In this document: positions 30,918-49,700 of the stretch, in pieces
Position numbering within the stretch: position 1 is the first letter of the stretch
Layout: every line of letters starts with the position of its first letter
Source of the DNA: Planctomycetota bacterium
Lineage (GTDB): Bacteria; Planctomycetota; GCA-002687715; CAIWVZ01
Direction: 5' to 3'
NCBI GenBank assembly: GCA_044222185.1
Contig: JBGANV010000014.1
Span: forward strand, 1-64,000
Length of the DNA: 64,000 bases
Notes under the pieces: generated by a model
The model's input: only the letters and a program-made list of their open reading frames with translations
The model's database searches: none
What the model was told of the DNA's origin: nothing
Made by a program: the position numbers and the translations under genes

Positions 30918-33900
30918 TCACGGCACGTAGTAGACGACCGTGAGCGTCGGCGCGCTCCCCGACGTTTCCGCCGAGAAGAAGCCGATGGAGTCCTGAACGG
31001 CGTCGTTGTCGCTCGCCGTCTGGTACCGCAGGCGGATCTGCGTCGGACCTGCGCGGTTCACCGCCGCGAGGCCCGTGGAACCGATCGGCGAATCCGACGC
31101 GGCGCCGTTGGAGGCGGGCACCGTCACCGTCATCCCCTTGCTCACGAAGACGAACCCGCCGGGCGTGTTCTGGAAGTCGTTGACCGCGAGCGCCGTGCTG
31201 GCACCGAAGTACCCGGCAACGATGTCGCCCCAGAGCGAGCCGAACGGGGTGGTGTTGCCAGACGATGCGCCGCGCACGAGGTGAAGCGACGCCGTGTCGA
31301 CGACCGCCGTATCCGGAAGCGTCGACGTGTCGAACGACACGAACCCACGGAACTGCTGCGCCGAGGCGTTGTCGCCCACGCGGATCGCGTTGCCGGTGTT
31401 GTTCGTGGCGTTGGCGCTGCCGCCATTCCCGCCAGTGCCCTCGGTGATCCACCCATCCTCCGCGGCGATGGACGTGAACGTCACCGTGACCAGGGTCTTG
31501 AACACTGCCGTGACCGTGTGAGGTCCGTTCATCGTGAGCGTGGTCGTGAGCGCGGTCGCGTTCGCGATGTCACTTGGTGTTCCGGTGGTGCTCCAACCCA
31601 GGAACTTGCAGCCGGCCGGGGACGTCGCCGTGAGCAGCACGGTGGACCCATGGGGGACGCCGCCGTTGGGCGTGTCCGCGGTCGCGGATCCGCAGCCCGT
31701 CGCGCTCAACGAGAATGCGTGGACTTGCTGGATCTTCGGTGCACCCCACAGCGAGAAGTCGCCTTGCGCCTTGGTTCGGCCGTGGACCTCGAACTCGATG
31801 TCCACCGTCTTGCCGGCGTAGGCCGCGAGTGAGACGTCGCGCCGGCCCGACCACTGGTTCGAGCGCCACTCCGCCGCGAACTCGCGCTTGCGAACGCGCG
31901 TCGCGAGGTCCCGTACCCAGATCGAGTAGTCGACGCCGTCCGCGGAGAGATTGCCGTCCTTGATCCCGATGTAGGTGCTGAGGGCCAGGTCGGCGACGTT
32001 CGGCAGCGTGAGTCGGCGCCAGCGAGCCGTCTTTCGCTGACCCAGGTACGTCGCCGCAGGCTGGGCGATCGACGGCTTGACGACCCCTCCGCAAGCCGCG
32101 GTGTTGTCCACGAAGTGGTTGTTCGCCGTCCCGAAGTCGATGAACTGGAGCTCACCGTTCGTGTCGACGAGCGGATCCGTCCCGTAGATCTTCAGGTTCT
32201 CACCCATCCCGGCGCCTAGCTTCTGGATGAAGTCGTAGGGGAGCGTCACCGCGAGGCTCGATGGTCCTGGGGGCCGAGGCGCGCCCTTCTTCGCCATCAT
32301 CAGCGAGCGGATCTGCGACGTGAAGCTGTTGTTCTTCGCGAGGACGATCTCGCTGGGAACGTAGATCTGGCCGGCGAGCTTCGACGGGTAGATGGCGATC
32401 TGCTCGATGGGAGCTCCGGGCGGCATCGATGCCGCGAGGTCCACGACGAACCACTGCCATGCCGCCGTGTCGGAGTGGATCGGCACGTTCGGGATGAAGA
32501 CGATGTTGCCGGCCGATTGGATCGCCACGTCGATGGTCGTCGGTTTCGCGATCCCCGTCGTGGACGTGAAGTAGGCGAGCAGGCAGAGGTACGGATAGTC
32601 GTCCACGAGCTTGCCGGTCATCACAGGCGACAGGACGACCGCCGCCGGCGTCGTGCTGAACAGCTGGCAGTTGTTCGCGCTGCTACCGCCCGGGCACGGC
32701 GGCGAGGAACCGACCGGGCAGAATCCTCCGGTGGTCCACGTGCCGACACCTGGGACCGAGGAGAAGCCCGTGCACGTGGACTTGTCCCAGGTCCAGCGCA
32801 TCGTCATGTCGAACGCCGGCGCCTCGGTCGAGCCCCAGTACATGGGGCTCAACATCTGGGCACCGTGGGTCCACGTCGATTGAACCGAGTCGATGAAGGC
32901 CTGCGATTCGTCGAACGTGCCGGCGGTGCCCGTGATGTAAGGGCTCCATTCCGGACAGCCCCAGGCATCGTCCATCGCGGCCAGGTTCAGATACTGGGCG
33001 CGGTGGGTCAGCGTGTCGTGCGAGGTGTAGATGGTCACACCGGCGAAGCCCCCGTTGCTGCCGATCTGTTCCCACGAGTCGAGCCACTCCTCGTTGTGAG
33101 GCGTCGCGCGACTCACGTGAACGGACGAATTGGGACCGGCCGCGTGATTGAAGATCCGGTTTCCGGGAACGCCGGCCGACCGGAGCCACGTCACGAACGT
33201 CTCGACGTAATCCTCGAGCACCTTCTCGCGGAAGTTGCACCACAGATGCCAGTACGCCGTCCGCGGCGCGCTCAACAGATGCGGGTAGTTCCGGGGCGGA
33301 TCCACGGCTGCCCAGGTCGCGGGGGGCAGGGTGTGGTCGAAACCGAAGCCGCCCGACGTCGGATAGTCGACGCGGTAGTCGCTCCAGAAGGTCCTCCCGT
33401 CGCCGTTGGAGTCGACGGTCGGCGACGAGTCGTTGTAAACGGTCGAGGCCAGCCAGTTCTGGAACGCCGTGATCATCAGCGGGTTGTAGTCCTGGACCGC
33501 CGGCCGATTCCCGCTCGTCGAATCGTAGGGCTGCTTCGAGAGGGGCGCGCCGCCGCTGAACGAGCCGAAGTGGATCTCCGGGTCGAGCATGAAGCCCGCC
33601 AGCAAACCCTGGTATCGCGGCAGGCTGGCGTACGCGAGGACCTGCTGTGCTCCCATCGTGATGTTGCGCTGCAGGTAGGCCAGGTACTCGGAATGCAGCA
33701 GGCACGGCTGAGCCCACGAGAACGCCGCGAACGATCCCGAGAGGTCGAACGTCGCGGGATCGTCGTCCGGGTCGACGACGTTCGACACGTCGTACATGCA
33801 GTAGCCCTTGCCGCGGGCCTCCATCATCAGGTCGAGGTCGACGTTGTCGGCCGCGAACGAAGCAAAGTTGATGTCAGCGTCGTGCCCCGGCGGCCGCATG

Positions 33901-34469
33901 CCACCGTAGGAGCCTGCGGCCTGAATCTGGAATGCGACGGGGATCCCGGAGTAACGCGCCCACTCGAACGCGGCGATCACGCGCGGCAGCTTGGCGAGCG
34001 TCGGCTGGCCCGTGAACCAGCTGGGCGCATCGTCGTCCGTCGAGCCCGTGAACCCGGTGAGCACCTCCGGAGGCATGTCGGCCATCGTCACGCCCGGGGG
34101 TGCGGGGACCGCCCGCCACTCCGGGCAGCGGTTCGCGAAGTACATGTAGTCCTTCGACTGGCCCTCGGTGATGCTCGAGTACGACAGTTCCACGGCCATG
34201 CCGACCTTGGCGTAGTGTCCGCCGCCGGTCTCGGGCGACGCGTCGCCGCCGCCGGCCATCTTCTTCACCATGGGCGCGACGAAGTTCGGGTCTCCGCCGA
34301 AGACGACGTACATCGTCTGGGAGTAGTCCGTGGATGCGGAGTAGGCCGCCGGCACCGGTGCCGGCGGGGGCGGGTTCGGCGCTGGTGACGGCAACTGCGC
34401 CGTGACGCGTGTGAGCGCCGTCGACACGAGTGCTGCCAGGAGACAGGAGCGAAGGACGCGGTGACTCAT
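30918..34469 (-). CDS. Exported multidomain protein: putative clan GH-A glycoside hydrolase barrel, NPCBM-like domain, B-repeat and DNRLRE/CBM96-like C-terminus
   Basis: Signal peptide TA|Q; LDPEIHF, DYNP...AFQNWL, W.NFRE and WGCPEWSP; DGVDY..W; DGWITEG...FVSFDTSTLP. Confidence 0.65.
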   Translation of the reverse strand: MSHRVLRSCLLAALVSTALTRVTAQLPSPAPNPPPPAPVPAAYSASTDYSQTMYVVFGGDPNFVAPMVKKMAGGGDASPETGGGHYAKVGMAVELSYSSITEGQSKDYMYFANRCPEWRAVPAPPGVTMADMPPEVLTGFTGSTDDDAPSWFTGQPTLAKLPRVIAAFEWARYSGIPVAFQIQAAGSYGGMRPPGHDADINFASFAADNVDLDLMMEARGKGYCMYDVSNVVDPDDDPATFDLSGSFAAFSWAQPCLLHSEYLAYLQRNITMGAQQVLAYASLPRYQGLLAGFMLDPEIHFGSFSGGAPLSKQPYDSTSGNRPAVQDYNPLMITAFQNWLASTVYNDSSPTVDSNGDGRTFWSDYRVDYPTSGGFGFDHTLPPATWAAVDPPRNYPHLLSAPRTAYWHLWCNFREKVLEDYVETFVTWLRSAGVPGNRIFNHAAGPNSSVHVSRATPHNEEWLDSWEQIGSNGGFAGVTIYTSHDTLTHRAQYLNLAAMDDAWGCPEWSPYITGTAGTFDESQAFIDSVQSTWTHGAQMLSPMYWGSTEAPAFDMTMRWTWDKSTCTGFSSVPGVGTWTTGGFCPVGSSPPCPGGSSANNCQLFSTTPAAVVLSPVMTGKLVDDYPYLCLLAYFTSTTGIAKPTTIDVAIQSAGNIVFIPNVPIHSDTAAWQWFVVDLAASMPPGAPIEQIAIYPSKLAGQIYVPSEIVLAKNNSFTSQIRSLMMAKKGAPRPPGPSSLAVTLPYDFIQKLGAGMGENLKIYGTDPLVDTNGELQFIDFGTANNHFVDNTAACGGVVKPSIAQPAATYLGQRKTARWRRLTLPNVADLALSTYIGIKDGNLSADGVDYSIWVRDLATRVRKREFAAEWRSNQWSGRRDVSLAAYAGKTVDIEFEVHGRTKAQGDFSLWGAPKIQQVHAFSLSATGCGSATADTPNGGVPHGSTVLLTATSPAGCKFLGWSTTGTPSDIANATALTTTLTMNGPHTVTAVFKTLVTVTFTSIAAEDGWITEGTGGNGGSANATNNTGNAIRVGDNASAQQFRGFVSFDTSTLPDTAVVDTASLHLVRGASSGNTTPFGSLWGDIVAGYFGASTALAVNDFQNTPGGFVFVSKGMTVTVPASNGAASDSPIGSTGLAAVNRAGPTQIRLRYQTASDNDAVQDSIGFFSAETSGSAPTLTVVYYVP

Positions 34470-34696
34470 CGTGGTCCTCGAAGTCCCAGACGTGCTGGGT
34501 GCTTGGTGGTGCTGTGGGCCACCCGCTCCAATGCCGCGCCCGGGGCAGTCGTTCCCCGACATCGGTTCGCGCCGCTTCGTCAGGCGTGGCGGAAAAAATC
34601 ACGTCGCATCCTCGCCGCGCCGTCGCCTGTCAGGTCAGGGACCGGTCCGGCGACGGCACGGGCTGTGCTGACACGCACGCAGAGGAGACCTCGAAG

Positions 34697-35088: not shown

Positions 35089-36462
35089 TCATTGCACGGT
35101 GAATCGGATCGCCGGCGACACGCATCCCAGCCCGCCACCCGTCACGTCGAGGCAGATGCCGTCGAACGCGAGCCCGGGTGGAACAGCGAAGGGCCCCGCC
35201 GACGCCGATGTTCGTGCGGCGATGAAGTGGAATGGCTTCACGCCGACGGGCATCCCGATCTGCCAGAGGAGTTCGGTCAGATCGTTCGCGCACAGTCCAA
35301 GCAGCGGGCCGCTTCCCGGATCGCCTCCACAGAGCTGCGTGCTGTACAGGTTGAAGTACTCATGGCCCGGGACCATCTCGCAGTTCGTGATGAACATCGC
35401 GGTTCCCGGCCCACTGGCCTGCACGATCTCGAGGATGGGCCTCGGCGACGACCATCGCGTGAGGTAGCCAGCGGATATGCTGCTGCTGCACGCACACCCA
35501 CCCACGACCAGGCCAGCACGAAAGAGCTGGAAGGTGGCGACGGGCGCGGTGAGACCCGAGTCGAGCGCGTGCCACGAGGTGCCGTTCCATCCCGCAACGC
35601 GGAGTGCTGGTACGCCACCTGCCGTCGTGAACGCTCCACCGGCGATCAGTTCGCCGTCGAACGTCGTGATGGCGCGCACTCCGGAATCCAGACCGGCTCC
35701 GAGCGCATGCCAGTCGACTCCGTCCCACGCCGCGATCCGGTTCGCGGGAATGCCATTCGCCGCCGTGAAATACCCACCGGCGATCAGCTCACCGCCATGG
35801 GTCGCGAGCACTGCGACGTCTCCGTTGATCGATCCCAGCGAACCAGCCGCCGAGGCCATGAACCCGCGGCTGATCTGCGTTTGATGGTTCACGATGTCGA
35901 GTAGCGCCCAGGTCACGTCGTTGCCGTGGCTCGTCACCGCCGTGGGAACGACCATGGTCATCGGCGCATCGACGCTCCACGACGTCCCATTCCAGCGTGC
36001 GCGGACGCCGATCGTGCCCTGATGACCCGGGTCGGAACTCGTCACCGATCCACCGGCGAACAGCGCGCCGTCGTGAACCGTCATCGTTCCGATCGACATC
36101 CCGGCCGTCGGGAGCGGCAGCGGTTGCCATGTCGAACCGGTCCAGGCGGTGAGGCCGCCGCATTCGGCGATCAGAGTCCCGTTCAGCACGGCCAGTTCGC
36201 GAATCGGGTCGGCGACGCCGGCCCCGAGTGCGCTCCACTTGGATCCGTTGAACGCGGCGACATGGCGTGCGGGGACGCCGTCGGCGCTGGTGAACCCACC
36301 GCCTGCGATCAGTCGACCGTCGTAGACCGCGAGCGCCGTCACGGCCCCATCGAACCCCGAACCCACCGTCGACCAGGTCGGGGGAGGACATTGACCCGGA
36401 GTCGCGGGCGCCACGGCGACGAACACCACCAGCACCAACCAGGACGTTTGAAGCCTTGTCAT
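35089..36462 (-). CDS. Exported ~7-blade repeat propeller protein, C-terminal domain shared with the 27111 gene
   Basis: Signal peptide PG|Q; G.LIAGG.FT.A.G.PA..(I/V)A.W.G..W repeats. Confidence 0.85.
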   Translation of the reverse strand: MTRLQTSWLVLVVFVAVAPATPGQCPPPTWSTVGSGFDGAVTALAVYDGRLIAGGGFTSADGVPARHVAAFNGSKWSALGAGVADPIRELAVLNGTLIAECGGLTAWTGSTWQPLPLPTAGMSIGTMTVHDGALFAGGSVTSSDPGHQGTIGVRARWNGTSWSVDAPMTMVVPTAVTSHGNDVTWALLDIVNHQTQISRGFMASAAGSLGSINGDVAVLATHGGELIAGGYFTAANGIPANRIAAWDGVDWHALGAGLDSGVRAITTFDGELIAGGAFTTAGGVPALRVAGWNGTSWHALDSGLTAPVATFQLFRAGLVVGGCACSSSISAGYLTRWSSPRPILEIVQASGPGTAMFITNCEMVPGHEYFNLYSTQLCGGDPGSGPLLGLCANDLTELLWQIGMPVGVKPFHFIAARTSASAGPFAVPPGLAFDGICLDVTGGGLGCVSPAIRFTVQ

Positions 36463-36724: not shown

Positions 36725-39700
36725 ATGATCCCGCGCATCGCCGTGATCTGCCTCGTCGTGTCGGTTTTCGCCGGCGCGCAGATGGCCGACCTCTCACTCC
36801 ACAACGTGCCGGTCGACCTCGCCTCGGGTCCGCGCACGAACCCCACATCGTTCCCGACGATCGTCTGGACGGAGACGCTCGCGTTCCCGGGCACGACGTG
36901 CGTTCAGGTGCATCTCGCCGACCTCGCGCTCCAGGACGAGGACGACGCGCTCGTCGTCACGTCGCTCGGTGACTCCGACCAGCAGGTGCTGCGACTCTCG
37001 AACGTGAAGTTCTGGGAGAACCACTCGGCCTGGTTCAACGGTCCGGGAGTGACGCTCGAACTCCGACTCGCGCCGGGCTCGTCCGGGTCCGTGACCGTGG
37101 ACTCGGCTTGGGTTTCGGCGCCGACGATCGCGCAACCCGACACGATCTGTCAGACGGACGACCGCACCCCGTTTGGAAGCGGCGTGATTTGTCGCCTCGT
37201 GGCGTCGGCGGCACAGACCGGCGGCGGATGCACGGGGTTCCTGGTCACGAACACGTCCATGATCCTCTCGGCCGGAAGTTGCGTGGGTACTCAATTCACC
37301 GTCGCCGAATTCAACTGTCCGTTCTCGACGACGGGCGGTCTGATCGTTCATCCCGCGGTGGCCGAGCAGTTCCCGGTGGACTCGTCGACGATCCTGTCCG
37401 CCAACGGTGCCGCCGGTGCCAACTGGGCCGTCGCGCGGCTCCATCCGAACAGCACGGGCGGGACGGCGGCTGGAGCCCACGGGTTCCTGACCGTCGCCAC
37501 GAGCTACCCGACGCTCGCCAACGTCGCGTGCTCGGTCCGCGGGTATGGCGCCGATGCGTCACCCGACCCCACACGCAACTTCGTATTGCAGAGTGACACG
37601 GCGACGCTCGCGTCCGTGTCCGGTCACGTGCTCCATCACACGTGCGACACGAACACTGGGAGCGAAGGTTCCCCGATCCTCGTCAACAACGAAGTCGTCG
37701 GGATCAACACGCACGGCGGATGCAACCCCACGCCGATCTCGCTCTCGAATGCGGGCACCGGTGTCCTCGAGTCCTCGCTCCAGGTGGCACGGACGGCGAC
37801 CTCGGGTTGCGCCACGGTGACACCGCCGGATGGCAACCCCGTCAACGCGCCGTGCAGCAACACGATCCTCACGATCGTTCCCGTCGCCAGCCAGTGGAAC
37901 GTGGTGGGTGTGAACGGCCCAGGTGACTGGGACGTCGCGGTGAGCGGTGTCTCCTCCACACGACCAGGCGGTTCCGCGGATTTCGTGTTCGCGGACGGAC
38001 GCGCGGGGACGATCCCGCCCGCCAGCGGCAACGTCTTCAACTCCTTCAGCGGTTCGAACGCACCGGTCCAGTTCCGCAGCGAATCGAACATCATCAATGC
38101 GGGCGCTGCCGCCCAGTTCAACTGGAACGCGCTCGACGTCTTCCGCGCGTTCGCGATCAACGTGACCAGCGCGGGCGGTCACGACGTCTTCATCCATGGC
38201 GACCCGCAGTTGACCTACTCGCTCTACACCGCTGCGGGTACGACGGCGTGGCGATCGCGGTCGGCTCTCACACCGACGGCCGCCGGTACGGCTGGCGATG
38301 GTGGGCAGGTCGGAGTGAATCTCCCCGTCGGCGTCCACCTGCTCGTGATCGCGCGGACCGGGGGCGTGGGCACCGTGCCCCAGACTCTCTACACGGTGAA
38401 CGTCTGCCCGTCGGTCGCAGCCGTCACCGTGCCGGTGAACGGGGTCGCGTCATCGACGGCCGCGTGCAACCGGCTGGGCGTGACTCCGGTCTCCGTGCAG
38501 TGGAACGTCGTGATGCTGGGATCGTTGTCCGACTGGAACCTGGGTGTCGGCGCGGCGCAGTCGAATTCGCTCGCGGCGAGCACCGAGTGCGTGGTGGCAA
38601 ACGGAACGCTCGGCGCCGTGACGCCGAACGTCGGATCGGCCTGGCGTGTCGGCGGCAGCCTCGGAGCGACGTTCGAACATCGCACGCCGGCAGCGATCGC
38701 GGTCGGATCGGTTGCGACGACGACGATCCCGGCTGGATCCATCGGGCGCGCATTCGCGTTCACGATCACGACGCCAGGACAGCACGGCATCATGTTCCCC
38801 GTGGCTCCGTCGAGTTTCGCCTGGCAACTCTTCGACGCCGGGACGTCGCCCGCGTGGCGTGCGAAGTCGGCGGCCGTGGCGTCGGGGACCGTATCGGCCA
38901 CGCCGGCGACGGTCACCCTCACCGCGGGTCAGTATCTGCTCGTCGCCCACGCGGAGCCGGGCCCCGTGGCCGCGTCCACGCTCATGCGCGTCCTCGTGGC
39001 TCCGACCGTCGCGACGCTCACGCTCGTGCAGGGGACGACCAACAGCGCCAACGGCGCCGCCACGCCGTTCATCCACACGCCTCAGCCCAACGTCTGGAAC
39101 GTCGTCGCAGCCACCTCCGACGCCACCACCGGCGACGACCTGACGATCGGTGCGGTCGACTCGGCAGGGAGCGGCAACGGAGTCGCCGAGATGCTCGTCG
39201 CCGATGGGCACGCGGGCGTGATCGACGCGACGCCGGGCATCGTGACACGCACCACTGGTGCCGCCTCGATCTCCATCGAACACGCGGTGAGAACCCTCCT
39301 GCCGTTCAATTCCGTGCTCAACGACTCCATGGGAACGGCGGACGTCGTGCGGCTCTACGAGTTCAACGCACCGGTCGCGGCGTCCTACCAGATCGTCGTA
39401 TCGGGCGCTCCGAGCCTGCGTTTCCGCCTCTACGCGCCGAGCGGTTCGTCAGCCTGGGTGCCGAAGCTCTCTTCCATCGCGAACGGACTCGCCAACGGCG
39501 GGACGACGCTCGTGTCGCTCGCGCCGGGAGCCCACGCGCTCGTCGTTCATCGCGACGGTGCGACGGGCACGGCCGCGTCCTACAGCCTCACGGTCACGCC
39601 GGCGCCCAGCGGCCAGCCGGCGATCACCGGACTCTCGCCCGCCACCGTGACTGCCGGTGCCGCCCAGTTCACGCTGACCGTCAACGGCACGGGAATCACG

Positions 39701-41656
39701 CCGTTCTCGTTCGCCAGGTTCGACGGCGTTTCGCTTCCGTCGTCGAGCCCCGCGGCGGGCACGGTGGAGGCGATCGTGCCGGCCCAGCTCGTGACCACCG
39801 GCGGTGTTCACACGATCACGCTCGTGAACGGACCCCCCGGCGGCGGGACGTCGAGCGGCATGACCTTCACGGTGAACAACCCCGCACCGACGCTGGCGTC
39901 GGTCGCCGCGGCAGTTCCGCTGGGCACCAGCGGCACGGTCACCGTCGACGGATCGGGTTTCGTGGCCGGCGGCTCCATCGTTCGCTGGGGTACGACCGAC
40001 CTCGCGACGACGTTCGTTTCGTCGACGCAGCTCACGGCCGCGTTGCCGGCAGCGGTGAACGTCGTCGTCGGCCCCGTCGCCGTGCGCGTCGTCAACGGCG
40101 CACCGGGGGGCGGGGCGTCTGGCGCGATCAACGTGCAGAGCCCGTTCCCCACGCCATCGCTGACGTCGCTGTCTCCGTCGACGCTTCTGGTCGGCTCGTC
40201 GAGCGCGACCATCACGGTCTTCGGCACCGGCTTCTTCGCCGGAGCGTCCACGGGCAATGTGAACGGACTGCCCGTCGCCACGACCGTCTCGAGCCAGACG
40301 GCGATGGACATCACCATTCCGGCGGCGTCGCTCACGACGCCCGGGTCCCGCTCGATCGTCGTCACGACGACGGGACCCGGCGGGGGAGCCTCGAACACGC
40401 TGCAGCTCCTCGTGAACTACCCGCTTCCGACCGTCACCGGAATCTCACCGAGCTCGGCGCTCGTCGGTTCGGGCCCGGCCGTCGTCACGGTCACGGGCAC
40501 CGGCTTCGTCGCGAACCAGTCCCTCGTGACGGTGGATGGGACTCCCATCACGACGACCGTGCAGTCGGCGACGCAGGCGCAGGCCACGTTGAGCTCCGCC
40601 GTGCTGAACACGGCTCACTCCGTGCAGCTGCGGATGCAGAACCCGCCGCCGGGCGGTGGAGCCTCGAATGCGATGGCCTTCACGATCCAAAACCCGACGC
40701 CCGTGATCACGGGGTTGTCGCAGACGTCGTTCGCGTTCGGCGCGGCGTCCGCGCCCCTGGCCATCACCTGCACGGGCCTCGTGCCCGGTGCGACGGCCAC
40801 GTGGAACAACACGCCGATCGGCGTGTTCGAATCTTCACCGGGTGTGCTCACGGGGACGGTGCCGACGACGCTCCTCGCGATCCCAGGTCCGGTCTCCATC
40901 GTCGTCCAGAATCCGGCGCCGAACACGGGGCCGTCGGCGCCCGTGGCTGCAAGCGTGGACGGGCCACGGCTGACGGCCATCTCGCCGTCGGTGATGCCGA
41001 TCCTCCTGCCGGGATCCCTGCCACAGGTCGTGACGCTGACGGGTTCGAACTTCGCACCGACGTCGCAGGCCTGGGCCGATGGCATCGCGTTGCCTGGGGC
41101 ATTCAACAGCTCCACGTCGATGACCGTCCTCATCGGGCCGTCGATCCAGGGCGCGCTTCGGCCCGGCGCGCTGGCGATCGTCGTCCAGACGACGATCGGT
41201 CCCGTCAGGCTCCAATCGAACGCACGGGCGCTCGTCATGGGATCCGGCAACAACCAGGGCACGTTCCAATACGTTCCCGTGGACGCCGGTCCCGGGACGC
41301 CGGTCACGTTCCGCTTCGAAGGCATGTTGCCCGGCGCGCCGATCACCGTGATCGCGGACCTCACCGCGCCGCTGCCGCTCGCACCGTTCCCGGATGCCTC
41401 GACCAACATGGTCCTGTCCGTCTACGCATCCATGCTTCCCGTCGTCGACGGGTTGGGGCTGTTCGGACCTCCGGCGCCGGTCACGACGACCTTCGATCCC
41501 GCGGCTACGGCACCCGGCGGGGTTTTCGAGATCCCAGGGCTCGTGATCCCCAACCCACCGCTTGGCGTCGACGCGGCGCTCCAGGCCGTCGTCCTCGATC
41601 CATCGAGTCCGATCGGATTGAGGCTCACCTGGGCGCGTTTCCCGCTGTCTCTCTGA
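36725..41656 (+). CDS. Large exported trypsin-fold pseudoprotease with 3 WNVV repeats, 6 IPT/TIG domains and C-terminal domain
   Basis: CTGFL..SAGSC, NWAVARL, DT.TGSEGSP, GINTHGGC; P.IT.LSP Ig-like repeats; AGGAG RBS. Confidence 0.85.
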   Translation: MIPRIAVICLVVSVFAGAQMADLSLHNVPVDLASGPRTNPTSFPTIVWTETLAFPGTTCVQVHLADLALQDEDDALVVTSLGDSDQQVLRLSNVKFWENHSAWFNGPGVTLELRLAPGSSGSVTVDSAWVSAPTIAQPDTICQTDDRTPFGSGVICRLVASAAQTGGGCTGFLVTNTSMILSAGSCVGTQFTVAEFNCPFSTTGGLIVHPAVAEQFPVDSSTILSANGAAGANWAVARLHPNSTGGTAAGAHGFLTVATSYPTLANVACSVRGYGADASPDPTRNFVLQSDTATLASVSGHVLHHTCDTNTGSEGSPILVNNEVVGINTHGGCNPTPISLSNAGTGVLESSLQVARTATSGCATVTPPDGNPVNAPCSNTILTIVPVASQWNVVGVNGPGDWDVAVSGVSSTRPGGSADFVFADGRAGTIPPASGNVFNSFSGSNAPVQFRSESNIINAGAAAQFNWNALDVFRAFAINVTSAGGHDVFIHGDPQLTYSLYTAAGTTAWRSRSALTPTAAGTAGDGGQVGVNLPVGVHLLVIARTGGVGTVPQTLYTVNVCPSVAAVTVPVNGVASSTAACNRLGVTPVSVQWNVVMLGSLSDWNLGVGAAQSNSLAASTECVVANGTLGAVTPNVGSAWRVGGSLGATFEHRTPAAIAVGSVATTTIPAGSIGRAFAFTITTPGQHGIMFPVAPSSFAWQLFDAGTSPAWRAKSAAVASGTVSATPATVTLTAGQYLLVAHAEPGPVAASTLMRVLVAPTVATLTLVQGTTNSANGAATPFIHTPQPNVWNVVAATSDATTGDDLTIGAVDSAGSGNGVAEMLVADGHAGVIDATPGIVTRTTGAASISIEHAVRTLLPFNSVLNDSMGTADVVRLYEFNAPVAASYQIVVSGAPSLRFRLYAPSGSSAWVPKLSSIANGLANGGTTLVSLAPGAHALVVHRDGATGTAASYSLTVTPAPSGQPAITGLSPATVTAGAAQFTLTVNGTGITPFSFARFDGVSLPSSSPAAGTVEAIVPAQLVTTGGVHTITLVNGPPGGGTSSGMTFTVNNPAPTLASVAAAVPLGTSGTVTVDGSGFVAGGSIVRWGTTDLATTFVSSTQLTAALPAAVNVVVGPVAVRVVNGAPGGGASGAINVQSPFPTPSLTSLSPSTLLVGSSSATITVFGTGFFAGASTGNVNGLPVATTVSSQTAMDITIPAASLTTPGSRSIVVTTTGPGGGASNTLQLLVNYPLPTVTGISPSSALVGSGPAVVTVTGTGFVANQSLVTVDGTPITTTVQSATQAQATLSSAVLNTAHSVQLRMQNPPPGGGASNAMAFTIQNPTPVITGLSQTSFAFGAASAPLAITCTGLVPGATATWNNTPIGVFESSPGVLTGTVPTTLLAIPGPVSIVVQNPAPNTGPSAPVAASVDGPRLTAISPSVMPILLPGSLPQVVTLTGSNFAPTSQAWADGIALPGAFNSSTSMTVLIGPSIQGALRPGALAIVVQTTIGPVRLQSNARALVMGSGNNQGTFQYVPVDAGPGTPVTFRFEGMLPGAPITVIADLTAPLPLAPFPDASTNMVLSVYASMLPVVDGLGLFGPPAPVTTTFDPAATAPGGVFEIPGLVIPNPPLGVDAALQAVVLDPSSPIGLRLTWARFPLSL

Positions 41657-41709
41657 TCGGCGCGCGCGTGGCTTGCCCGGGCTCTCCCGGGCGAGTCTGC
41701 GTTTTTCCC

Positions 41710-41735
41710 GTTAGGTCTCGGCGGGGCTCGCCTTC
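41710..41735 (+). promoter_or_regulatory. Conserved upstream motif GTTAGGTC-N11-CGCCTTC, copy 2
   Basis: Ends 27 nt before the ATG, versus 28 nt for copy 1. Confidence 0.55.
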
Positions 41736-41762
41736 ATAGGGGCTCCTCACCGGAGTTTCCTC

Positions 41763-44700
41763 ATGCGAGCCCGAACCGTCGCCCTCCTCCTGTCGTTCGT
41801 CGCTTCGTCCGTGGTCGGCCAGCAGGCGAGTCTGCCTCTTGCGAACCATCCCGTGCGCGCCAGTTCCGGTGTGCGACAGAACACGGGCAGCTCTGCCATC
41901 GAAACCGTGTGGACTGAGACCATCTCCGTCGCCTCGGCGACGTCCATCCAGCTTCAGTTTCAGGGCATCCAGCTCGGCGACGAGCGTGACGCGCTCGTCG
42001 TCACGAGTCGCTGGGACGGCCAGCAGCAGGCGCTGACGTCGAGCAACCTGAAGTTCTGGGCCAACCACTCGGCCTGGTTCAACGGCTCGGCCGTCACGGT
42101 CGAGTTGCGACTCGCGCCGGGATCGAGCGGGTACGCGCTCGTGGATTCGGCGTGGTTCATGGGGTCGATCGCCATGGTCCCCGAATCGCTGTGCGCCGGT
42201 GACAATCGGGCGTTGTACACCGATGCGCGAATCTGCCGACTCATCGCGTCCGCCGGTCAGACCGCCGGCGGTTGCACCGGGTTCCTCGGCGCTGCGTCGT
42301 CGACGATCTTCTCGGCGGGGAGCTGCGTCGGGTCACAGTTCACGATCGCCGAGTTCAGCTGCCCGGCGTCGACGGCGGGCGGTCTCATCGTTCATCCGCC
42401 CGTCTCCGAACAGTTCCCCGTCGACGCGTCGACGGTGCACTCGAACAACGGGGCCGCGGGAGCGAACTGGGCCGTGGCCCGGCTCCACCCGAACAGCACG
42501 GGACAGACGGCTGCCGGGCTTCATGGCGTCTTCACGTTGCTGCCGCTGGCGCAGCCCTACCCGGCCAACGGAGCGGCGCTGACGGTCGCCGGCTTCGGGA
42601 CGGATACGACGCCGGACGCCACGCGCAACTACGTCCTGCAGTCCGCCGCAGGGACCGTGCAGGCACCGATCACGTCGAACCTGATCACTCACGATGCGGA
42701 CACGGCCACAGGAGGCGAGGGGTCGCCGATTCTCGTCGGCACGACGGTGGTCGGCGTGAACACGCACGGCGGATGCACGGCGTTCCCAGGGCTCGGGAAC
42801 AACGCGGGCACCGGCATCCAGGAGGGCGCGCTCCAGTCCGCGTTCAGCAGCATCAAGGGCTGCGCGACGACTTCGCTCGCAGCCAACACCCCGCAGGCGC
42901 TCACCTGTTCACCGACGGTGTTCTCGTTCGTCCCGAACGCATCGCAGTGGAACGTGGTCGGCGTCGGCGGCACGACGGACTGGGATGTCGAGATCGGAAC
43001 CGCATCGTCGAGCCGCAACGGGACTCAGTCCGACTTCGTCTTCGTCGACGGCCGCGCTGGCGCGTTGGCGCCGATCTCGGGAGTCGCGACGGACATCGGC
43101 GCATTCGCGAACGGCACGATCCACTTCGCCAGCGAATCGGCGACCGTCGTCGACGACGCGCCAGCCAGCTTCACCTGGAGCTCGACTGCGGCGCTGCGCG
43201 TCTTCGCGGTGAACGTCACGAGTGCCGGCCTCCACGACGTCCTGGTCGCTGGCGACCCGACGCTCCAGTATTCGCTCTACGCGCCCAACGGCACGACGGC
43301 TTGGCGTTCGCGCGGCACGGAGACGCCGCTCTCGGCGGGGAATCTGGGCGGCGCTCCGGTGGGCGTCACCATGGGGCTGGGCGTGCATCTGCTCGTCATC
43401 AGCCGCGCGGGCGGCCCTGGCACGCCATCGAACCCCACGTTCACGATCCATGTCTGCCACCACGCGACGGTCTCGCCCGCCCTCAACGGAACGCCCGTGA
43501 ACGTCAACGCCTGCGCCCAGGTCAGCCTGCCGTCGTCTGCGGGTTGGAACGTCGTGTCCGTGTCCACGCCTGCGACGGCAAACTGGAACGTCTGCTTCGA
43601 CTCGGCGCAATCGCTTCGCACGGGGAGCGCGACGGACTTCGTCATCGCGCGGGGAGTGCCGTCTCTCGTGAGCGGCATGGTCTGGCGTCAATCCGGCTCG
43701 GCGTCGGGAGCGGTCGAGTATCAGAGCGACGTCGCGTTGACGCTCGGCGCACCGACGCCCGTGTCGTTTCCGGCTGGGAGTTCCGTCCGCGTCCTTTCGT
43801 TCCAGGCCGCGGTCGCCGGCAACTACGACATCTCGTTCCCCACGGGATCGGCGAGCCTGAAATGGAGGCTCTTCGATCACGGCACCATCGGTCAGTGGCG
43901 CTCCAGCGATGATGCAACGGCGAGCGGCACGCTGTCGGCGTTCCCGACGACGGTCTCTCTCGTGAGCGGCATCAACGCCCTCGTCATCTTCGGCGAGCCG
44001 GGACCGCTCGCGGTGGGAACGACGTGCACGGTTCGCGTTTGCGCGACGCCCGTGCCGGTGACGCTCACGCAGGGTGTGGGAACTCCGCTCGCTCCCATCT
44101 GCGCCGACCTCACCCACACGCCCGAGGGCGGATTCTGGAACGCGATCGCCGTAGTCCCTGACTCCGTGGGCGCCGCCGATCTCTACGTCGGCACCACGGC
44201 GGCGGTGCAGCCGGGCTTCGGGCAGTGCGAACTCGTGGTGGCGAACGGTCACGTCGGGACGGTTCCCGCCGTGAACGCGCTGGCCGTCCGTACGTCCGTC
44301 CTGGGGACGATGGCGGCCGAACACGCCGCACGACTGACGCTCGCGTCGGCCACTCCGCTCGCCGACTCGTTCGCCGCGACGGATGTCGTCCGCATCTACG
44401 AGTTCCCGGTGACCGTGGCCGCGACCCACCAGATCACGGTGAGCGGCGCGCCGGCGCTGCGTTGGGCGGCCTTCGACTCCAACACGGGCGCCGGATGGGT
44501 GACGCGCGCGACGGCCGTCGCATCGGGGACTGGCGACGGCGTGTCGGTTGGCGCCACGTTCACGATCGGGACGGCGGCCATCGCCGTCTTCCGCGAGCCG
44601 AACGCCTCGACGCCCGTCACGTTCGCCGTCACCTGCGGTCCGCCCGCACAGCCCGCTCCAACCGTCACGTCCATCTCGCCGACGTTGGTGCAGGTGGGCA

Positions 44701-46694
44701 CGAACGGCATCACGGTGACCGCGAACGGATCGGGCATGACCCAGTTCAGCACGCTCTTCGTCGACGGGACGCCATTCCCGACGACGTTCATCTCCGCCGC
44801 GAGCGTTTCGGCGCCGTATGGTGCGGCGTTGCTGCAGGTCCCCGGGTTCCACACGGTGACCGTCGTGAATCCGCCGCCGGGCGGCGGGACGTCGAGCCAA
44901 CTGACGTTCGCCGTCAACGCGATCGCTCCGAGCCTCACTGCAGCCACGTGTGGGGCCGTGCTCGGAACCGCAGGCACGGTGACGGCGACGGGCGCGAACT
45001 TCGTTCCCGGGCTGACCATCCTTCGGTGGGCGGGAACGGACCTCGCGACGACGGTGATCTCACCGACGCAAATGACGGCCGTGCTTCCGGCCTCGGTGAA
45101 CATCCTCGGCGGAACGGTGAGCGTGCGCGCGTTCACGCCTCCGCCCGGAGGCGGCCAGAGCGCGACGTTCCCCGTCCTCAACCCCGCGCCGGCACCGACG
45201 ATCACCAGCGTGTCGCCCACGTCGCTCCTCGCAGGATCGCCGACCACGCAATTCACGATCACGGGGACGGGGTTCTTCCAGGGCGCATCCGGACTGACCG
45301 TGACGGGAAGCGGACTGAGTCCCACGGTGGTGAACTCCACGCTCATCCAGGTGAACGTACCGGCGAGCCTTCTCGCGCAGGCCGGCAACAAGACGGTGAT
45401 CGTCACGAACGCGGCTCCTGGCGGCGGACAGTCGAACACGGTGGGGTTCACCGTGTTCAACGCGCTGCCAACCATCGCGTCCGTGACGCCGAGTTCGGCC
45501 ACGGTCGGAGACGCGCCGACGACGATCACCGTCGTGGGTACGGGGTTCGTCGCGCTGACGAGCCTGAAGATCGATGGCACGGGCATCAACCTCGGCGTCG
45601 TCTCGCCGACGCAGATGCACGGTCTGATTCCGGCGGGCTTCCTCGCCGCGCCGGGTGTGCACTCGCTCACGGTGAACAATCCTCCTCCTGGCGGCGGGAC
45701 GTCCGCGTCCGTTCCGTTCGTCGTGAATGCGCCCGCGCCCGCGATCACCTCCGCGACTCCCACGAGCTTCGCGTTCGGCGGCGCGCAGACGGCGATCACT
45801 CTCAACTGCACGAACCTGCTGGTCGGCGCCACCGCCACGTGGAATGGCACCCCGCTCTCGGGCTTCGTCACGAGCCCAGGCGTCTACACCGGCATCGTTC
45901 CGAGCACGCTGCTCGGTCAGCCTGGTCCGGCAACCGTCGTCATCGCGAACCCGGCGCCGGCGCTGGGTCCGTCGGCCCCCGTGACGGTCGTGGTGGAGAA
46001 GCCGCGGATCCAGTCGCTCTCCATTCCGGGAATCCCCATCCTCACGCCCGCGTCGCCACCGCAGGCCATCGGCATCACGGGCAGCTTCTTCGCGTCGACG
46101 ACACGCGTCTTCGCCGACGGCACCCTGCTGCCGACCACTCCGATCTCGCCGACCCAGCTCACGGCATCCGTTCCCGCGAGCGTCCTGGGAACGCAGCGTC
46201 CCGGTGCACTCGCGATCACCGTCCAGACGTTCGTCGGTGCCACGAAGGCTCAATCCAATTCCCACGCCCTGCTCGTTGGAGGCTTCAGCAATCAGGGGAC
46301 GTTCCAACTCGTGCCGGTCGACGCCGGTCCGGGCGACTTCGCCACGTTCCGATTCGAAGGCACGGCGCCCGGCGTTCCGATCACCGTGCTCGCGGACCTC
46401 ACGGGACCCGCGCCGCTGGCGCCGTTCCCCGACCCGGCGACGAACCAGGTGCTCGGGGTCTGGCAGTCGATCCTCCCGGTGATCGACGGCATCGGTCTCC
46501 TCGGTCCGCCACTCCCGGTCACCACGGTCTTCGATCCGGACGCGACGGCGCCGGGCGGTGTCTTCGAGATCCCGAACCTCCAGGTGCCGAACCCGCCACT
46601 CGGGATCAGTGCAGTGTTGCAGGCCGTCGTTCCCGATCCATCGACTCCCATCGGTCTGCGCCTCACGTGGGCGCGCTTTCCGCTCGCGCTTTGA
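41763..46694 (+). CDS. Tandem paralog: exported trypsin-fold pseudoprotease with IPT/TIG domains
   Basis: SAGSC, NWAVARL and TGGEGSP; colinear with the 36725 gene; ends IGLRLTWARFPLAL. Confidence 0.85.
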   Translation: MRARTVALLLSFVASSVVGQQASLPLANHPVRASSGVRQNTGSSAIETVWTETISVASATSIQLQFQGIQLGDERDALVVTSRWDGQQQALTSSNLKFWANHSAWFNGSAVTVELRLAPGSSGYALVDSAWFMGSIAMVPESLCAGDNRALYTDARICRLIASAGQTAGGCTGFLGAASSTIFSAGSCVGSQFTIAEFSCPASTAGGLIVHPPVSEQFPVDASTVHSNNGAAGANWAVARLHPNSTGQTAAGLHGVFTLLPLAQPYPANGAALTVAGFGTDTTPDATRNYVLQSAAGTVQAPITSNLITHDADTATGGEGSPILVGTTVVGVNTHGGCTAFPGLGNNAGTGIQEGALQSAFSSIKGCATTSLAANTPQALTCSPTVFSFVPNASQWNVVGVGGTTDWDVEIGTASSSRNGTQSDFVFVDGRAGALAPISGVATDIGAFANGTIHFASESATVVDDAPASFTWSSTAALRVFAVNVTSAGLHDVLVAGDPTLQYSLYAPNGTTAWRSRGTETPLSAGNLGGAPVGVTMGLGVHLLVISRAGGPGTPSNPTFTIHVCHHATVSPALNGTPVNVNACAQVSLPSSAGWNVVSVSTPATANWNVCFDSAQSLRTGSATDFVIARGVPSLVSGMVWRQSGSASGAVEYQSDVALTLGAPTPVSFPAGSSVRVLSFQAAVAGNYDISFPTGSASLKWRLFDHGTIGQWRSSDDATASGTLSAFPTTVSLVSGINALVIFGEPGPLAVGTTCTVRVCATPVPVTLTQGVGTPLAPICADLTHTPEGGFWNAIAVVPDSVGAADLYVGTTAAVQPGFGQCELVVANGHVGTVPAVNALAVRTSVLGTMAAEHAARLTLASATPLADSFAATDVVRIYEFPVTVAATHQITVSGAPALRWAAFDSNTGAGWVTRATAVASGTGDGVSVGATFTIGTAAIAVFREPNASTPVTFAVTCGPPAQPAPTVTSISPTLVQVGTNGITVTANGSGMTQFSTLFVDGTPFPTTFISAASVSAPYGAALLQVPGFHTVTVVNPPPGGGTSSQLTFAVNAIAPSLTAATCGAVLGTAGTVTATGANFVPGLTILRWAGTDLATTVISPTQMTAVLPASVNILGGTVSVRAFTPPPGGGQSATFPVLNPAPAPTITSVSPTSLLAGSPTTQFTITGTGFFQGASGLTVTGSGLSPTVVNSTLIQVNVPASLLAQAGNKTVIVTNAAPGGGQSNTVGFTVFNALPTIASVTPSSATVGDAPTTITVVGTGFVALTSLKIDGTGINLGVVSPTQMHGLIPAGFLAAPGVHSLTVNNPPPGGGTSASVPFVVNAPAPAITSATPTSFAFGGAQTAITLNCTNLLVGATATWNGTPLSGFVTSPGVYTGIVPSTLLGQPGPATVVIANPAPALGPSAPVTVVVEKPRIQSLSIPGIPILTPASPPQAIGITGSFFASTTRVFADGTLLPTTPISPTQLTASVPASVLGTQRPGALAITVQTFVGATKAQSNSHALLVGGFSNQGTFQLVPVDAGPGDFATFRFEGTAPGVPITVLADLTGPAPLAPFPDPATNQVLGVWQSILPVIDGIGLLGPPLPVTTVFDPDATAPGGVFEIPNLQVPNPPLGISAVLQAVVPDPSTPIGLRLTWARFPLAL

Positions 46695-46715: not shown

Positions 46716-49700
46716 TCACCGCCGCGAATCGGGCGCAGCGTCGGTTCGCTCGGCGACGAGGCGGCCGCCGAACCGCCACATCGCGGACCTCGGCGACATG
46801 CGAAGCCGCGTCACGGTGTAGAAGTTCTCCGGGTTGTTGTTCACCGCTGCGCCGCCCTTCAGCGCTGCGGTGCCCAGGTCGTGGTTGACCACGTCGGGGA
46901 TCACCCATTCGCTCAGCGATCCGGCCATGTCGAACGCACCGAACGGCGATTCGTCCACGGGGAAGCTCATGGAGCGTGAGTAGGTCGATCTCGCGAGCGC
47001 GTACCGCGAGCTCACCCACGACTGCGAGAGGAAGGACCCGAACGGGTAGAGCCGTCCGTCGGCACCGCGGGCAGCCTTCTCCCACTCGATCTCGCGCGGG
47101 ATCCGGTAGCGCCACGGTCGGCCCGCCTTCGAGTCGACGTCCGTTCGCCACGCCGCGTAGGCCTCCAACGCCGCGAAGGTGAGGCCGCGCGCGGGAAGGA
47201 CTGCCTCCGTGTCGGCGACCTGCCAGGGTTTCCCGGGGCCGGGGGGAGTGAGCTCCGCATCGGGGGCATCGCCCGGCAGCGCGCTTCGCGGTGCGAAGGC
47301 ACGCGCCGACTGAGGCCCGATCGCGTTGAGGAACTCCGCGTATTCAGCCCAGTTGATTTCGTGATCCTGGATCCAGAACTCCGGAAGCGTCGCGACGCGC
47401 GACTCGCAGGCGTCGAAGAACCGGACCTCCGTGGGAGTCCCGCCCACTCGGGCAGGCCCGGCCGGAACGTGGACGAACCCCTTGGGGCTGAAACCCGGGG
47501 GACGCAGCGTCACGTCGAGCTTGACCGTCGAGCCGCGTTCGACGCGAACGGGCAGGCGTTGCAGTTCGAACCCGTCGTGGCGGACGACGGCGAGGTACGA
47601 GCCCACTTCGAGCTCGCGGTGGAACCCTGAGCCCGAGCCGACACGTGTCTGCGGCGACGTGAGGACGGGTGCGACGGTCACGCGGAGTTCGCTCTCGCCG
47701 TCGAGTACGCGGTCGACGAGGATTCCGTCGCGAAGCAGGCGCGCCCGCTTGCCTGCGAGCGCCGGGAGCTCGGCCGTCGACGTGAGCGTCACGCCTTCGA
47801 CCGCGACGAGCACGTCGCCGGGGAGAAGGTCCGCGGACGTCGTTCGGATGACCTGCAGGCACGGCGCCCCGGGCTCCAGGTCGGACCAGCGGCCTTCCAA
47901 CGGGACGGGAACGAGACGACGCGGCGCATCGGCGCTGACCGACGAAGCCTCGCGGTAACGCAAGAGGTGGATCTCCGCGTCGCTCGGCTGTGCGCGGATT
48001 TCGAGCACGCCACCGAGAAGCTCCGCCGTGAACCTCCCATCGCGGTCGGCGCGACGGAGCGCCTCGCGGATCGCATCGGCCGCGCGCGTGTCGCCGAGGC
48101 GTTCCGCCTCATGCAGCCGTTCGGCGTGCAGCCCGCACACGACGTCCGCGGCGCCCGGTACGTCGGGCGCGCGCTTCAACGCTTCCGTGATCGTCTCCGG
48201 AATGCCGAACGTGAGCTCGTCGATCTCCTGGATCAGCCGCGGGATCTCGGCGTCGAGTCGCTGGAGGCGCTGCTCTTCTTTCGGGTCCAGATGGGAGAGC
48301 GTGGCGATCGTCTTCAACTTCGACAGCTCGGCCTCGACCTCGATGGTGTGACGTTGCAGCTTGCGGAAGCGGTCGAGTCGGGAAAGGGCGTCGGCGACCA
48401 ACTCCGCGGCATCGCGCAGGGCGAGCGCACGCGTGGTCCGTTCGCGGAGGGCGAGAACTCGCGGGTCCGTACCGCGCAGTGCGAGCGCGCGACCGGCGCA
48501 TGCCGCAGCCGTCTCCGGGTCCTCGCGGTCGAGCGCGGCGACGGCGCTCGCGATCTCGGCCTCGAATCGCCGCCCATCGGCGATCACCCGCCAGGCCTCG
48601 ACGACCAGGTACGTCGCGAGCGTGAGGGAGAGAGCCGCTGCGACGGCCGCGGTGCGGGGACGTCGGCGAATCGCCCGCGTCATGCGGACGCGGAGCGCGG
48701 GCGGCCGCGCCCGGATCGGGCGGAGGTCGATCAGCGCTTCGAGGTCGGCGACGAGTTCGGCGGCGCTCGCAAACCGCGCCTCGGGATCGCGCTCGAGGGA
48801 CTTCGCCACGACGACCTCCACGTCGCGGGGGAGACTCGGAACGAGCTGGCGAAGGGGGACCGGATCGGTGGTGAGGATCGCGTTCAGCACCTGCTCGGAC
48901 GTTCCGCCGGGGAACGGCGGCCTGCCCGCGAGCATCTCGTAGAGCGTTGCGCCCAAGGACCAGATGTCCGTGCGAGCGTCGAGCGCGCCCCGGGCTTCCA
49001 CCTGTTCGGGGGACGCGTAGTGAGGAGTGCCGCGGAACACGCCCGTGAGGGTGAGCGTTTCTCCCAGGTCGCCGCGGGCGAGGCCGAAGTCGGTGAGTAC
49101 CGCCCTGCCTTGCGGAGTGATGCGGATGTTCGACGGTTTGATGTCCCGGTGGATCACGCCCGCCGCGTGCGCGGCTGCGAGCCCGCGGGCGATGTCGAGC
49201 GCGATGCGAACGGCGTCCATGGGATTGGGACGCGATCCGATACCGTCGCGCAGCAACTCGTCGAGACCGCGGCCTGGAACGTACTCCATGGCGACGAAGA
49301 CCGTGCCGTTCGCCTCGCCAGCCGAGATGGCCGTGACGACGTTGGGATGCTGTACGCGTCCGAGCGCCTCGGCTTCACGAAGGAGACGTTCGCGCGCTTC
49401 GCGTGTCGTCGCGAGCGTCGCGTGGAGGACCTTCACGGCGACACGACGCTTGAGCGACGGCTGCGCGGCGAGCCAGACCACACCCATGCCGCCCTCGCCC
49501 AGCGGCTCGATGAGGTGGAACTCTCCGAGACGGTCACCGCCATTGACCTGTGACGTGGCCGAAGCAACTCGCGGAGCCTCGTCCGGAGAGCCGGCGAGCA
49601 CGCGCAGCTGGTGACGCTCCTCCTCCGTCAACTCCGGGTGGGCGGCGAGAAAGCCCTCGAGGTCCAATGGCTCGCCCGAGAACAGCTTTTCGAGTGCGGC

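Follow-up and report, generated by a model that had tools for sequence, protein, structure and literature searches.

What becomes of a secreted protease head when every residue of its catalytic triad has been replaced? The question is raised by a tandem pair of giant genes in a 64,000-nt stretch of a Planctomycetota bacterium genome (contig JBGANV010000014.1 of assembly GCA_044222185.1, positions 1 to 64,000; hereafter the window). Gene A (P0003, 36725..41656) and gene B (P0002, 41763..46694) are read as open reading frames with their translations, both on the + strand, as are their parts and the hairpin between them. Each encodes a putatively secreted multidomain protein of 1643 aa; B repeats the architecture of A, and the two are 48% identical end to end. 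The original prediction, made from the letters of the DNA, had described two giant tandem paralogs with a trypsin-like scaffold, in which the motifs AGSC, NWAVARL and GSEGSP/GGEGSP stand for a loss of His to Ser, Asp to Asn and Ser to Glu, and had noted that the codons of the two copies differ synonymously (AGT at 37277 and AGC at 42321; GAA at 37664 and GAG at 42717). All of this is confirmed here, the codons exactly. The reading that we favour for these heads, argued by analogy and held at a rough probability of 0.55, is a non-catalytic peptide- or protein-binding head carried on a secreted stalk.

Replacement of the catalytic triad

We placed both heads in a family alignment of 161 rows, which combines 15 rows from a search at near full length with the best 150 of 1507 representatives, with overlaps; one further list of matches gives the best 120 of 272. 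The triad columns read His-Asp-Ser (HDS) in 145 of the 161 rows, and Ser/Asn/Glu (S/N/E) in both window proteins. For A, the alignment puts Ser185 (AGT, 37277..37279) in place of the catalytic His, Asn233 (AAC, 37421..37423) in place of the catalytic Asp and Glu314 (GAA, 37664..37666) in place of the nucleophilic Ser, the last also by phmmer and with G312 kept beside it. For B, the codon alignment gives Ser187 (AGC, 42321..42323), Asn235 (AAC, 42465..42467) and Glu319 (GAG, 42717..42719) at the same three places. A fourth replacement goes with these. The His of a GIH motif that runs through the family is Asn328 in A (37706..37708) and Asn333 in B (42759..42761), both by the family alignment. 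The GIH motif aligns with the IGIH of Esp, so that its His column (H328) would correspond to His213, which a review of glutamyl endopeptidases gives as the residue best conserved in their S1 site (PMC5508998). In two row sets, this His is present in 126/145 and 110/110 of the HDS rows; it is lost in 6/16 rows with a dead triad vs 19/145 HDS rows in one set, and in 6/11 vs 0/110 in the other.

Little else of what the family conserves has changed. Among the 47 columns that are each at least 85% conserved in the 145 HDS rows, B retains 42 and A retains 41. Five changes are found in both copies (H185S, V198C, D233N, S314E and H328N), and A additionally has G293A. Kept in both are G312 and G315, the likely scaffold of the oxyanion hole, and C169 and C186, which would form the disulfide of the His loop. 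With the Ser, His and Asp of the triad and the His of the S1 pocket all gone, the heads would be unable to act as serine proteases, and to judge from their sequences both must be dead in that sense. Together with the fold and with the purifying selection on the head described below, these replacements give good support to the earlier description of the pair as pseudoproteases.

The substitutions are real and not an assembly error, since independent contigs agree at the triad codons. The locus or part of it is present in 20 rows from 8 studies, which are activated-sludge and bioreactor metagenome runs; 7 of these 20 rows contain at least half of the sampled words of the locus, and one of them is possibly the source of the assembly. 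In runs X2, X6 and X9, contigs span the six triad codons, and not one of the 40 differences listed for the metagenome contigs, out of 53, falls in them. One contig of run X9 has an in-frame insertion of 3 nt (CCC) behind position 36939, in the N-terminal domain of A, which suggests strain-level length variation. Some metagenome contigs, aligned at 88% likeness, also showed apparent joints with sides of 20-27 letters, which we treated as cross-matches between repeats or to other organisms. The search of sequencing runs listed no RNA dataset with the locus.

The fold of the head

An AlphaFold2 model of residues 1-392 of A, built on 69 sequences, has a predicted local distance difference test score (pLDDT) of 86.7 and a predicted template modelling (TM) score of 0.85, and in it a beta domain (aa 25-131) precedes another domain rich in beta structure. 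The top match of this model by Foldseek is the V8 protease (1qy6, E 1.7e-10, TM 0.75 on the target), and the leading matches are the V8 protease, Esp, the Bacillus intermedius glutamyl endopeptidase (GluBI) and the Spl proteases, with E-values from 1.7e-10 to about 1e-8. VIA-align, an all-against-representatives structural search independent of Foldseek, superposes the model on 1p3e and 1qy6 with Z 23.6 and a root-mean-square deviation of 2.4-2.5 over 196-198 residues, such that model residues 140-362 lie over residues 1-215 and 1-212 of the two chains, respectively. The V8-type, glutamyl-endopeptidase-like S1B domain of A is assigned to aa 140-362 (37142..37810) from this fold match and from its similarity to Trypsin_2.

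Sequence comparisons point the same way. By phmmer, gene A reaches SplB weakly (E 0.0018), with tgsEgsp of A opposite sgnSgsp of SplB. A profile of the family run against solved structures finds Esp, GluBI and V8 at E 1.5e-13 to 6e-13, and its Asp and GNSGSP motifs align onto those of the solved glutamyl endopeptidases. Against the Pfam family Trypsin_2 (PF13365), the isolated head of A scores 24.3 bits for a cut-off of 27.6 (E 5.7e-5), over positions 1-144 of the profile, its full length. The homologs P0004, P0009 and P0016 exceed that cut-off, and therefore the homology of the window heads to Trypsin_2 holds by transitivity. On the model, then, the head is a chymotrypsin-type double beta-barrel of the V8-type S1B kind, and the S1 scaffold of the original prediction is borne out by structure prediction and by superposition on glutamyl endopeptidases.

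In the family the head seems to be made with a pro-region. At the junction between the N-terminal beta domain and the head, 35 of the 41 rows listed have a Glu or Asp just ahead of the position that matches mature residue 1 of V8 and GluBI, and the window copies keep this acidic residue (D139 in A, E140 in B). The junction echoes the Glu(-1) autoprocessing site described for Glu-SGP (PMC5508998), an analogy at the level of position and charge.

Constraint on the head

Is the head of A and B a relic? Between the two paralogs, the C-terminal domain is 73% identical, the head 62%, the N-terminal domain 50%, repeats 1-3 of the stalk 49, 36 and 33%, and the CoaZ stalk 47%. For the head, we obtain a nonsynonymous rate (dN) of 0.32 and a synonymous rate (dS) of about 1.05, hence dN/dS of about 0.3, with dS saturated (around 1) and codon usage biased (G+C at third codon positions, GC3, of 0.86 in gene A, in a window of 68% G+C), so that only the ranking of the domains is meaningful. 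For the same reasons, we rejected dN/dS as a test of the three triad codons themselves. Only the C-terminal domain is more conserved than the head, which therefore does not look like a relic; the comparison of the two copies indicates a dead head that is under purifying selection and still used.

The original prediction had gone further, and read the synonymous codon differences between the copies as selection on the new residues. That argument is weak because the copies inherited S/N/E from one ancestor, because dS is saturated and because the residues lie inside conserved motifs.

Recurrence of the Ser/Asn/Glu set

The window pair is not alone in its replacement. A second dead clade consists of eight proteins of 1212-1236 aa, in which the N-terminal domain and a dead V8-like head are joined to PF21959/PF14339 (DUF4394). 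Two of them, P0043 and P0167, have S/N/E (others lie within P0163-P0168). The eight members read SNE, SDA, QDA, SNE, QDS, QDN, QDA and SNA. Other dead lineages of the family read QNA, NNS, RDE, LDQ, FNF, SDI, HDD, QDA and PNA. Within the second clade, 3/4 of the members with Ser for the His have Asn for the Asp (the exception is P0163, S-D-A), and those with Gln keep the Asp in 4/4 cases, which suggests coupled substitutions.

In trees of the N-terminal 450 aa, made with quick searches, the window pair (support 100) lies within a clade of large proteins (98), and the second dead clade (100) branches among HDS rows on the other side of the tree. When the four SNE rows are forced into one clade, an approximately unbiased (AU) test rejects the tree, with a log-likelihood difference of 187.7 and p 5.5e-52; the trait itself set the membership of this group, which was chosen once a first tree was at hand. 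S/N/E has at least two independent origins.

The HDS paralogs of the source genome use CAY, GAY and TCS codons, from which S/N/E requires at least 5 nucleotide changes, and Glu alone requires at least 2 from TCS; the change from Ser (TCS) to Glu must go via Ala, because TAG is a stop. Glu is accompanied by Ser and Asn in 4/5 of the Glu-bearing sequences, the fifth being R-D-E. A single buried negative charge seems to have been kept in this way, and shifted from position 102 to position 195. Better evidence for selection on the new residues than the codons is this recurrence, together with the constancy of the window pair, which keeps S, N and E at 55% identity of the N-terminal part; in the other dead clade, P0043 differs at 1/3 triad positions from P0163 and at 3/3 from P0164, at 61-62% identity. 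The set is not obligatory, since close relatives of the SNE members of that clade read SDA, QDA, QDN and SNA. The S1 His is kept in P0043 and lost in the window pair. We conclude that S/N/E is a recurrent filling of a dead site, and probably one that stabilises it, rather than a new catalytic centre.

Possible roles of the head

In the mechanism that we favour, each gene would yield a Sec-exported, elongated protein with the C-terminal domain at one end and the head at the far end. From the N-terminus, it would consist of a prodomain-like beta domain, the V8-type head, three beta repeats, six Ig-like CoaZ/TIG repeats and the C-terminal domain. The head of most family members is a real serine protease, the HDS forms presumably being directed at Glu or Asp and made as a pro-form. 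The dead head would retain the old substrate cleft as a non-catalytic site for an extended peptide or protein, presented at the tip of the stalk, with a role in capture, in adhesion or in partnering with the 11 intact paralogs of the same genome. Unable to process themselves, A and B could be cleaved only by an active paralog in trans, at the acidic residue before T140/S141. That the fold, the disulfide cysteines, the glycines and most conserved residues are kept under purifying selection makes a cleft kept for binding the most likely role. Several observations weigh against this proposal. The model speaks for the overall fold, and not for the facing of S185, N233 and E314 or for an open cleft; Sec export and a surface location would follow from sequence features only; and no partner gene is evident among the neighbours in the window. 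Purifying selection would fit a structural or a new enzymatic role equally well, and the recurrence of S/N/E, with a Glu at least two changes away, hints at more than tolerance.

The next most likely reading is a vestigial head. The large proteins would then work through their other domains, with the head as a folding or structural cap and S/N/E as one tolerated filling. Triad loss is indeed frequent and varied (SNE, HDD, SDI, QDA, NNS, QNA, LDQ, QDS, RDE, FNF, SDA, QDN, SNA, PNA), close relatives within one dead clade differ at all three positions, and Ser (TCS) leads to Ala (GCS) and on to Glu or Asp in single steps, Ala being the commonest state beside Glu. We nonetheless consider a vestigial head unlikely, given its rank as the second most conserved part of the pair (62%, dN/dS about 0.3), the 42 (B) and 41 (A) conserved columns of 47 that it retains, among them the glycines that flank the former nucleophile, and the constancy of S, N and E in the pair at 55% identity where the other dead clade changes at 62%. 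More doubtful is a regulator or decoy, that is, a head that pairs with, activates or shields an HDS paralog, soaks up inhibitors or is a substrate processed in trans, as sub-functionalised duplicates might. The inactivated protease paralogues of the scabies mite, which have a decoy-like role, match the model (3h7t and 3h7o, Z 18.8-18.9); of the 17 family members in the genome, 11 have an intact triad, and both dead copies retain the acidic residue at the predicted prodomain junction. MamO offers a precedent, being needed for MamE-dependent proteolysis with its own triad dispensable (PMC4794232). Against such a role, the dead genes are linked to each other only and not to an active paralog; nearby lie genes for beta-propeller proteins, a rhomboid and a kinase.

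There is finally the idea, also raised by the original prediction, of a rewired Ser/Asn/Glu site with new chemistry. Ser185, Asn233 and Glu314, together with Asn328, would form a new centre, in which Glu314 acts as base or nucleophile with the oxyanion hole, or oxygen ligands hold Ca2+, Mg2+ or an amine. Its most far-reaching form makes S/N/E a convergent end state that is reached after loss of the His and Ser to Ala, when Asp goes to Asn along with Ala to Glu; the carboxylate in the oxyanion hole and Asn328 might then make a site for a cation, an amine or a substrate, or support Glu-based hydrolysis. The independent origins (AU test p 5.5e-52), the at least 5 nucleotide changes from CAY/GAY/TCS, the company of Ser and Asn for 4/5 Glu, the recurrence of acidic replacements of the nucleophile in several lineages (SNE, RDE, HDD) and the glycines retained near 314 all fit. 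Yet the sisters of the other SNE proteins are SDA, QDA, SNA, QDN and QDS, and catalytic residues would not turn over so; since its relatives vary, S/N/E is not a fixed motif. Nor is the site uniform in its S1 His, lost in the pair and kept in P0043, and the convergent lineages are few, with one-step paths via Ala and Asn that lower the improbability of arriving at the same set. To our knowledge, no hydrolase of the trypsin fold uses a Glu nucleophile. A rewired site, catalytic or otherwise, is unlikely, the least probable of the readings considered. If true, it would mean that a new functional centre has evolved at least 2 times on the chymotrypsin fold, with the His-Asp-Asp variants as a second such experiment.

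Domain architecture

The signal peptide of A (about aa 1-22, 36725..36790), as read from the translation, has a basic N-terminal end, a hydrophobic core and AGAQMA. It is followed by the N-terminal beta domain (aa 25-131, 36797..37117), which is prodomain-like, all-beta in the model with pLDDT mostly above 93, and conserved across the family. Behind the head come three repeats of about 195 aa (aa 366-565, 570-763 and 786-962; 37820..39610), which self-blastp identifies at E 1e-15 and 1e-14, in agreement with the three repeats of about 190 aa that had been predicted. These repeats are possibly PPC-like, a weak lead. PPC (PF04151) matches repeat 3 only, at E 0.071; the homolog P0016 reaches PPC at E 0.0084, below the cut-off, and in the ESM Atlas repeat 1 gives weak PPC and Por_Secre_tail leads with low counts of shared features.

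The stalk continues with six repeats of about 90 aa each (aa 965 to about 1500, 39617..41224; boundaries by self-blastp). The NCBIfam family NF058597 (CoaZ_rpt_PGGG, a domain of about 88 aa) scores 309.4 bits on A and 284.1 bits on B, with 6 stretches in each, for a curated cut-off of 30 bits. These had been predicted as six IPT/TIG domains. The six repeats are real, but Pfam TIG (PF01833) stays below threshold on A and B, and on isolated segments only TIG_SUH appears, at E 0.039. They are better named CoaZ (PGGG) repeats, TIG-like through homologs that do reach Pfam TIG (P0004, in 5 stretches with E 3.8e-28, and P0013).

The proteins end in a conserved C-terminal domain of about 143 aa (A: aa 1501-1643, 41225..41653, ending ...GLRLTWARFPLSL; its counterpart in B: 46266..46691). 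This domain (...GFRLTWAR...) is common to all 15 large paralogs of the genome and matches no known family in Pfam or NCBIfam. Its nearest ESM Atlas clusters are unnamed proteins of 98-122 aa, mostly from Planctomycetota. An AlphaFold2 model of it from the 15 paralogs has pLDDT 53.4, and we judged it unusable. The domain is probably the anchoring, sorting or export module of the family, and the signal peptide and stalk would be consistent with Sec export and a surface location of A and B. A Pfam scan of full-length A and B gives no match. On isolated segments, with E-values up to 10, Pfam finds nothing for the N-terminal domain, repeat 1 or the C-terminal domain; matches to S100PBPR, Shr-like_HID and HTH_66 on such segments were rejected as being at chance level.

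Family and genome context

An exhaustive family search over representative clusters, with E-values up to 1e-3, finds 1507 clusters, of which 1073 are at E up to 1e-10. The homologs carry names such as "V8-like Glu-specific endopeptidase" and "GC-type dockerin domain-anchored protein", and are proteins of metagenome-assembled genomes of Planctomycetota/Phycisphaerae. The family is probably planctomycetal. The source genome (7.08 Mb in 16 contigs, 93.8% complete) has 17 members, the open frames of 15 run to 1395-1836 aa, and the triads of the 17 copies are 11 HDS, 2 SNE (the window pair), 3 HDD and 1 QNA. Among 30 genomes of relatives, 20 carry the family, with 0-8 copies each. The pair has no close ortholog in any of the 30, where the best match is 42% identical. 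In a protein search at near full length, the best non-paralog is 41% identical, and nothing scored in a search for shorter homologs. A contig scan of genomes gives 10 loci, all at 35% identity or less, and no close ortholog with SNE. Among the literature matches listed, none concerns choice-of-anchor proteins in Planctomycetota, and those on giant genes are general planctomycete papers only.

Triad loss goes with size in this family. In the 161 rows, 11/39 proteins of at least 1000 aa are without HDS vs 5/122 shorter ones, counts that describe the family rather than test it, the rows being kin. A second tandem pair, with intact HDS, lies on contig 7 (C7:613176-614357 and C7:618342-619481, both on the - strand, 5 kb apart). 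The three H-D-D copies of the source genome, with Asp (GAC) for Ser, are at C7:505424-506593 (+), C6:802721-803824 (-) and C14:436567-437529 (+). H-D-D is also found in P0014, P0027 and P0073. P0014 and P0027 are a sister pair with end branches of 0.48 and 0.54, and both retain H-D-D, which suggests an alternative site that is maintained rather than one in decay.

What we see is a large uncharacterised family of secreted V8-like proteases in which catalysis has been given up repeatedly, above all among the long forms with a stalk. New here is a bacterial S1 pseudoprotease in a heavily expanded family with a recurrent Ser/Asn/Glu replacement. Such a family could serve as a natural series for the conversion of a protease cleft into a binding site, and for studying what stabilises an active site that is dead, for instance a carboxylate in the oxyanion hole, with the charge shifted from Asp102 to position 195.

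The locus and its neighbours

Gene A has AGGAGA 7 nt upstream of the ATG at 36725. A longer frame of A from a TTG at 36626 is unlikely to be used; we prefer the ATG because AGGAGA is well spaced there and a typical signal peptide begins at that codon. Between A and B lies a terminator-like hairpin (41670..41697), with a 12-bp stem of 9 GC pairs and then the T-run TGCGTTTTTC; the whole region has 4 such sites for 3.9 expected from shuffles, no excess. As the hairpin between the genes is strong, A and B may be transcribed separately.

Downstream, a gene on the - strand (46716-49736) runs towards gene B, and their stop codons are only about 20 bp apart. It encodes a protein of 1006 aa with a Ser/Thr protein kinase domain (E 1.3e-45) and a C-terminal FGE-sulfatase (formylglycine-generating-enzyme-like) domain. 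Upstream, three genes encode large, probably secreted proteins (27111-29759, +; 30918-34562, -; 35089-36462, -), two of them Rax2/DUF5122 beta-propeller proteins and one a protein of 1214 aa that carries a divergent InlB B-repeat. A rhomboid protease is encoded at 29949-30728. Further upstream (23903-26949, +), two overlapping genes of sulfate activation encode a PAPS-reductase-family protein and then a CysN/CysC-type fusion (GTPase and APS kinase, acting on adenosine 5'-phosphosulfate). As the locus occurs in activated sludge and bioreactors, one may speculate that its surface proteins matter there for protein capture or floc adhesion.

Comparison with known systems

Trypsin-fold pseudoenzymes are well known in animals, and few bacterial cases have been worked out (MamO and UmbA). 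The nearest relatives of the window heads in fold are active enzymes, the S1B glutamyl endopeptidases (V8/GluV8, Esp and GluBI; PF13365), with which they have the fold in common (Z 23.6; family profile E about 1e-13). At the family level, the two groups have the same motifs, namely a D-R near the mature N-terminus, the disulfide of the His loop, GxSGSP and GIH, and the S1B enzymes likewise have an N-terminal pro-region that ends in an acidic residue. Unlike them, the window proteins have lost the triad to Ser/Asn/Glu and the S1 His to Asn, miss the Pfam cut-off (24.3 vs 27.6 bits) and carry about 1280 additional residues of repeats and C-terminal domain.

In eukaryotes, the S1 pseudoproteases (HGF, haptoglobin and the scabies-mite SMIPP-S) are like the window heads in that the chymotrypsin fold is kept and the triad mutated, and they are used for protein binding. 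SMIPP-S have undergone a multigene expansion, as has the family of the window. Matches of the model to such proteins (1si5_H, 4f4o_C and 3h7t_B) have VIA-align Z of 17.7-19.1. The eukaryotic cases differ in being of subfamily S1A and in having other substitutions, and we know of none with the S/N/E set.

In bacteria, MamO of magnetotactic species is described as a repurposed trypsin-fold pseudoprotease, which arose by duplication, lost catalysis and gained a new binding function, and trypsin-fold pseudoproteases are reported there to have evolved convergently in three taxa (PMC4794232). Like the window pair, MamO is a pseudoprotease of the Trypsin_2 superfamily; it arose by duplication beside an active paralog. 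Only MamO is HtrA-type and membrane-associated, with a TauE domain and with metal bound by a surface di-His motif away from the triad (PMC4794232).

The closest parallel to the reading that we favour, a non-catalytic binding head on a secreted stalk, comes from the umbrella toxin particles of Streptomyces. UmbA, like the window heads, is a secreted bacterial trypsin fold without a complete triad. No UmbB- or UmbC-like partner or toxin gene is seen in the window, and the paralogs differ from UmbA in coming from another phylum, in being a single long chain with an Ig stalk and in having no lectin domain. The Umb1 chain and UmbA4 (8w20_C and 9oee_A) match the model with Z 18.7 and 18.1 at 21% identity, the highest in the VIA-align list. 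The trypsin-like domains of UmbA are reported to have no full triad and no activity, and to bind the N-terminus of UmbB within their major cleft (PMC11062931). There the fold serves to grip an extended peptide, next to binding domains and at the outer end of a larger assembly (PMC11062931), and UmbA is the best-documented analogue for a secreted bacterial dead trypsin fold.

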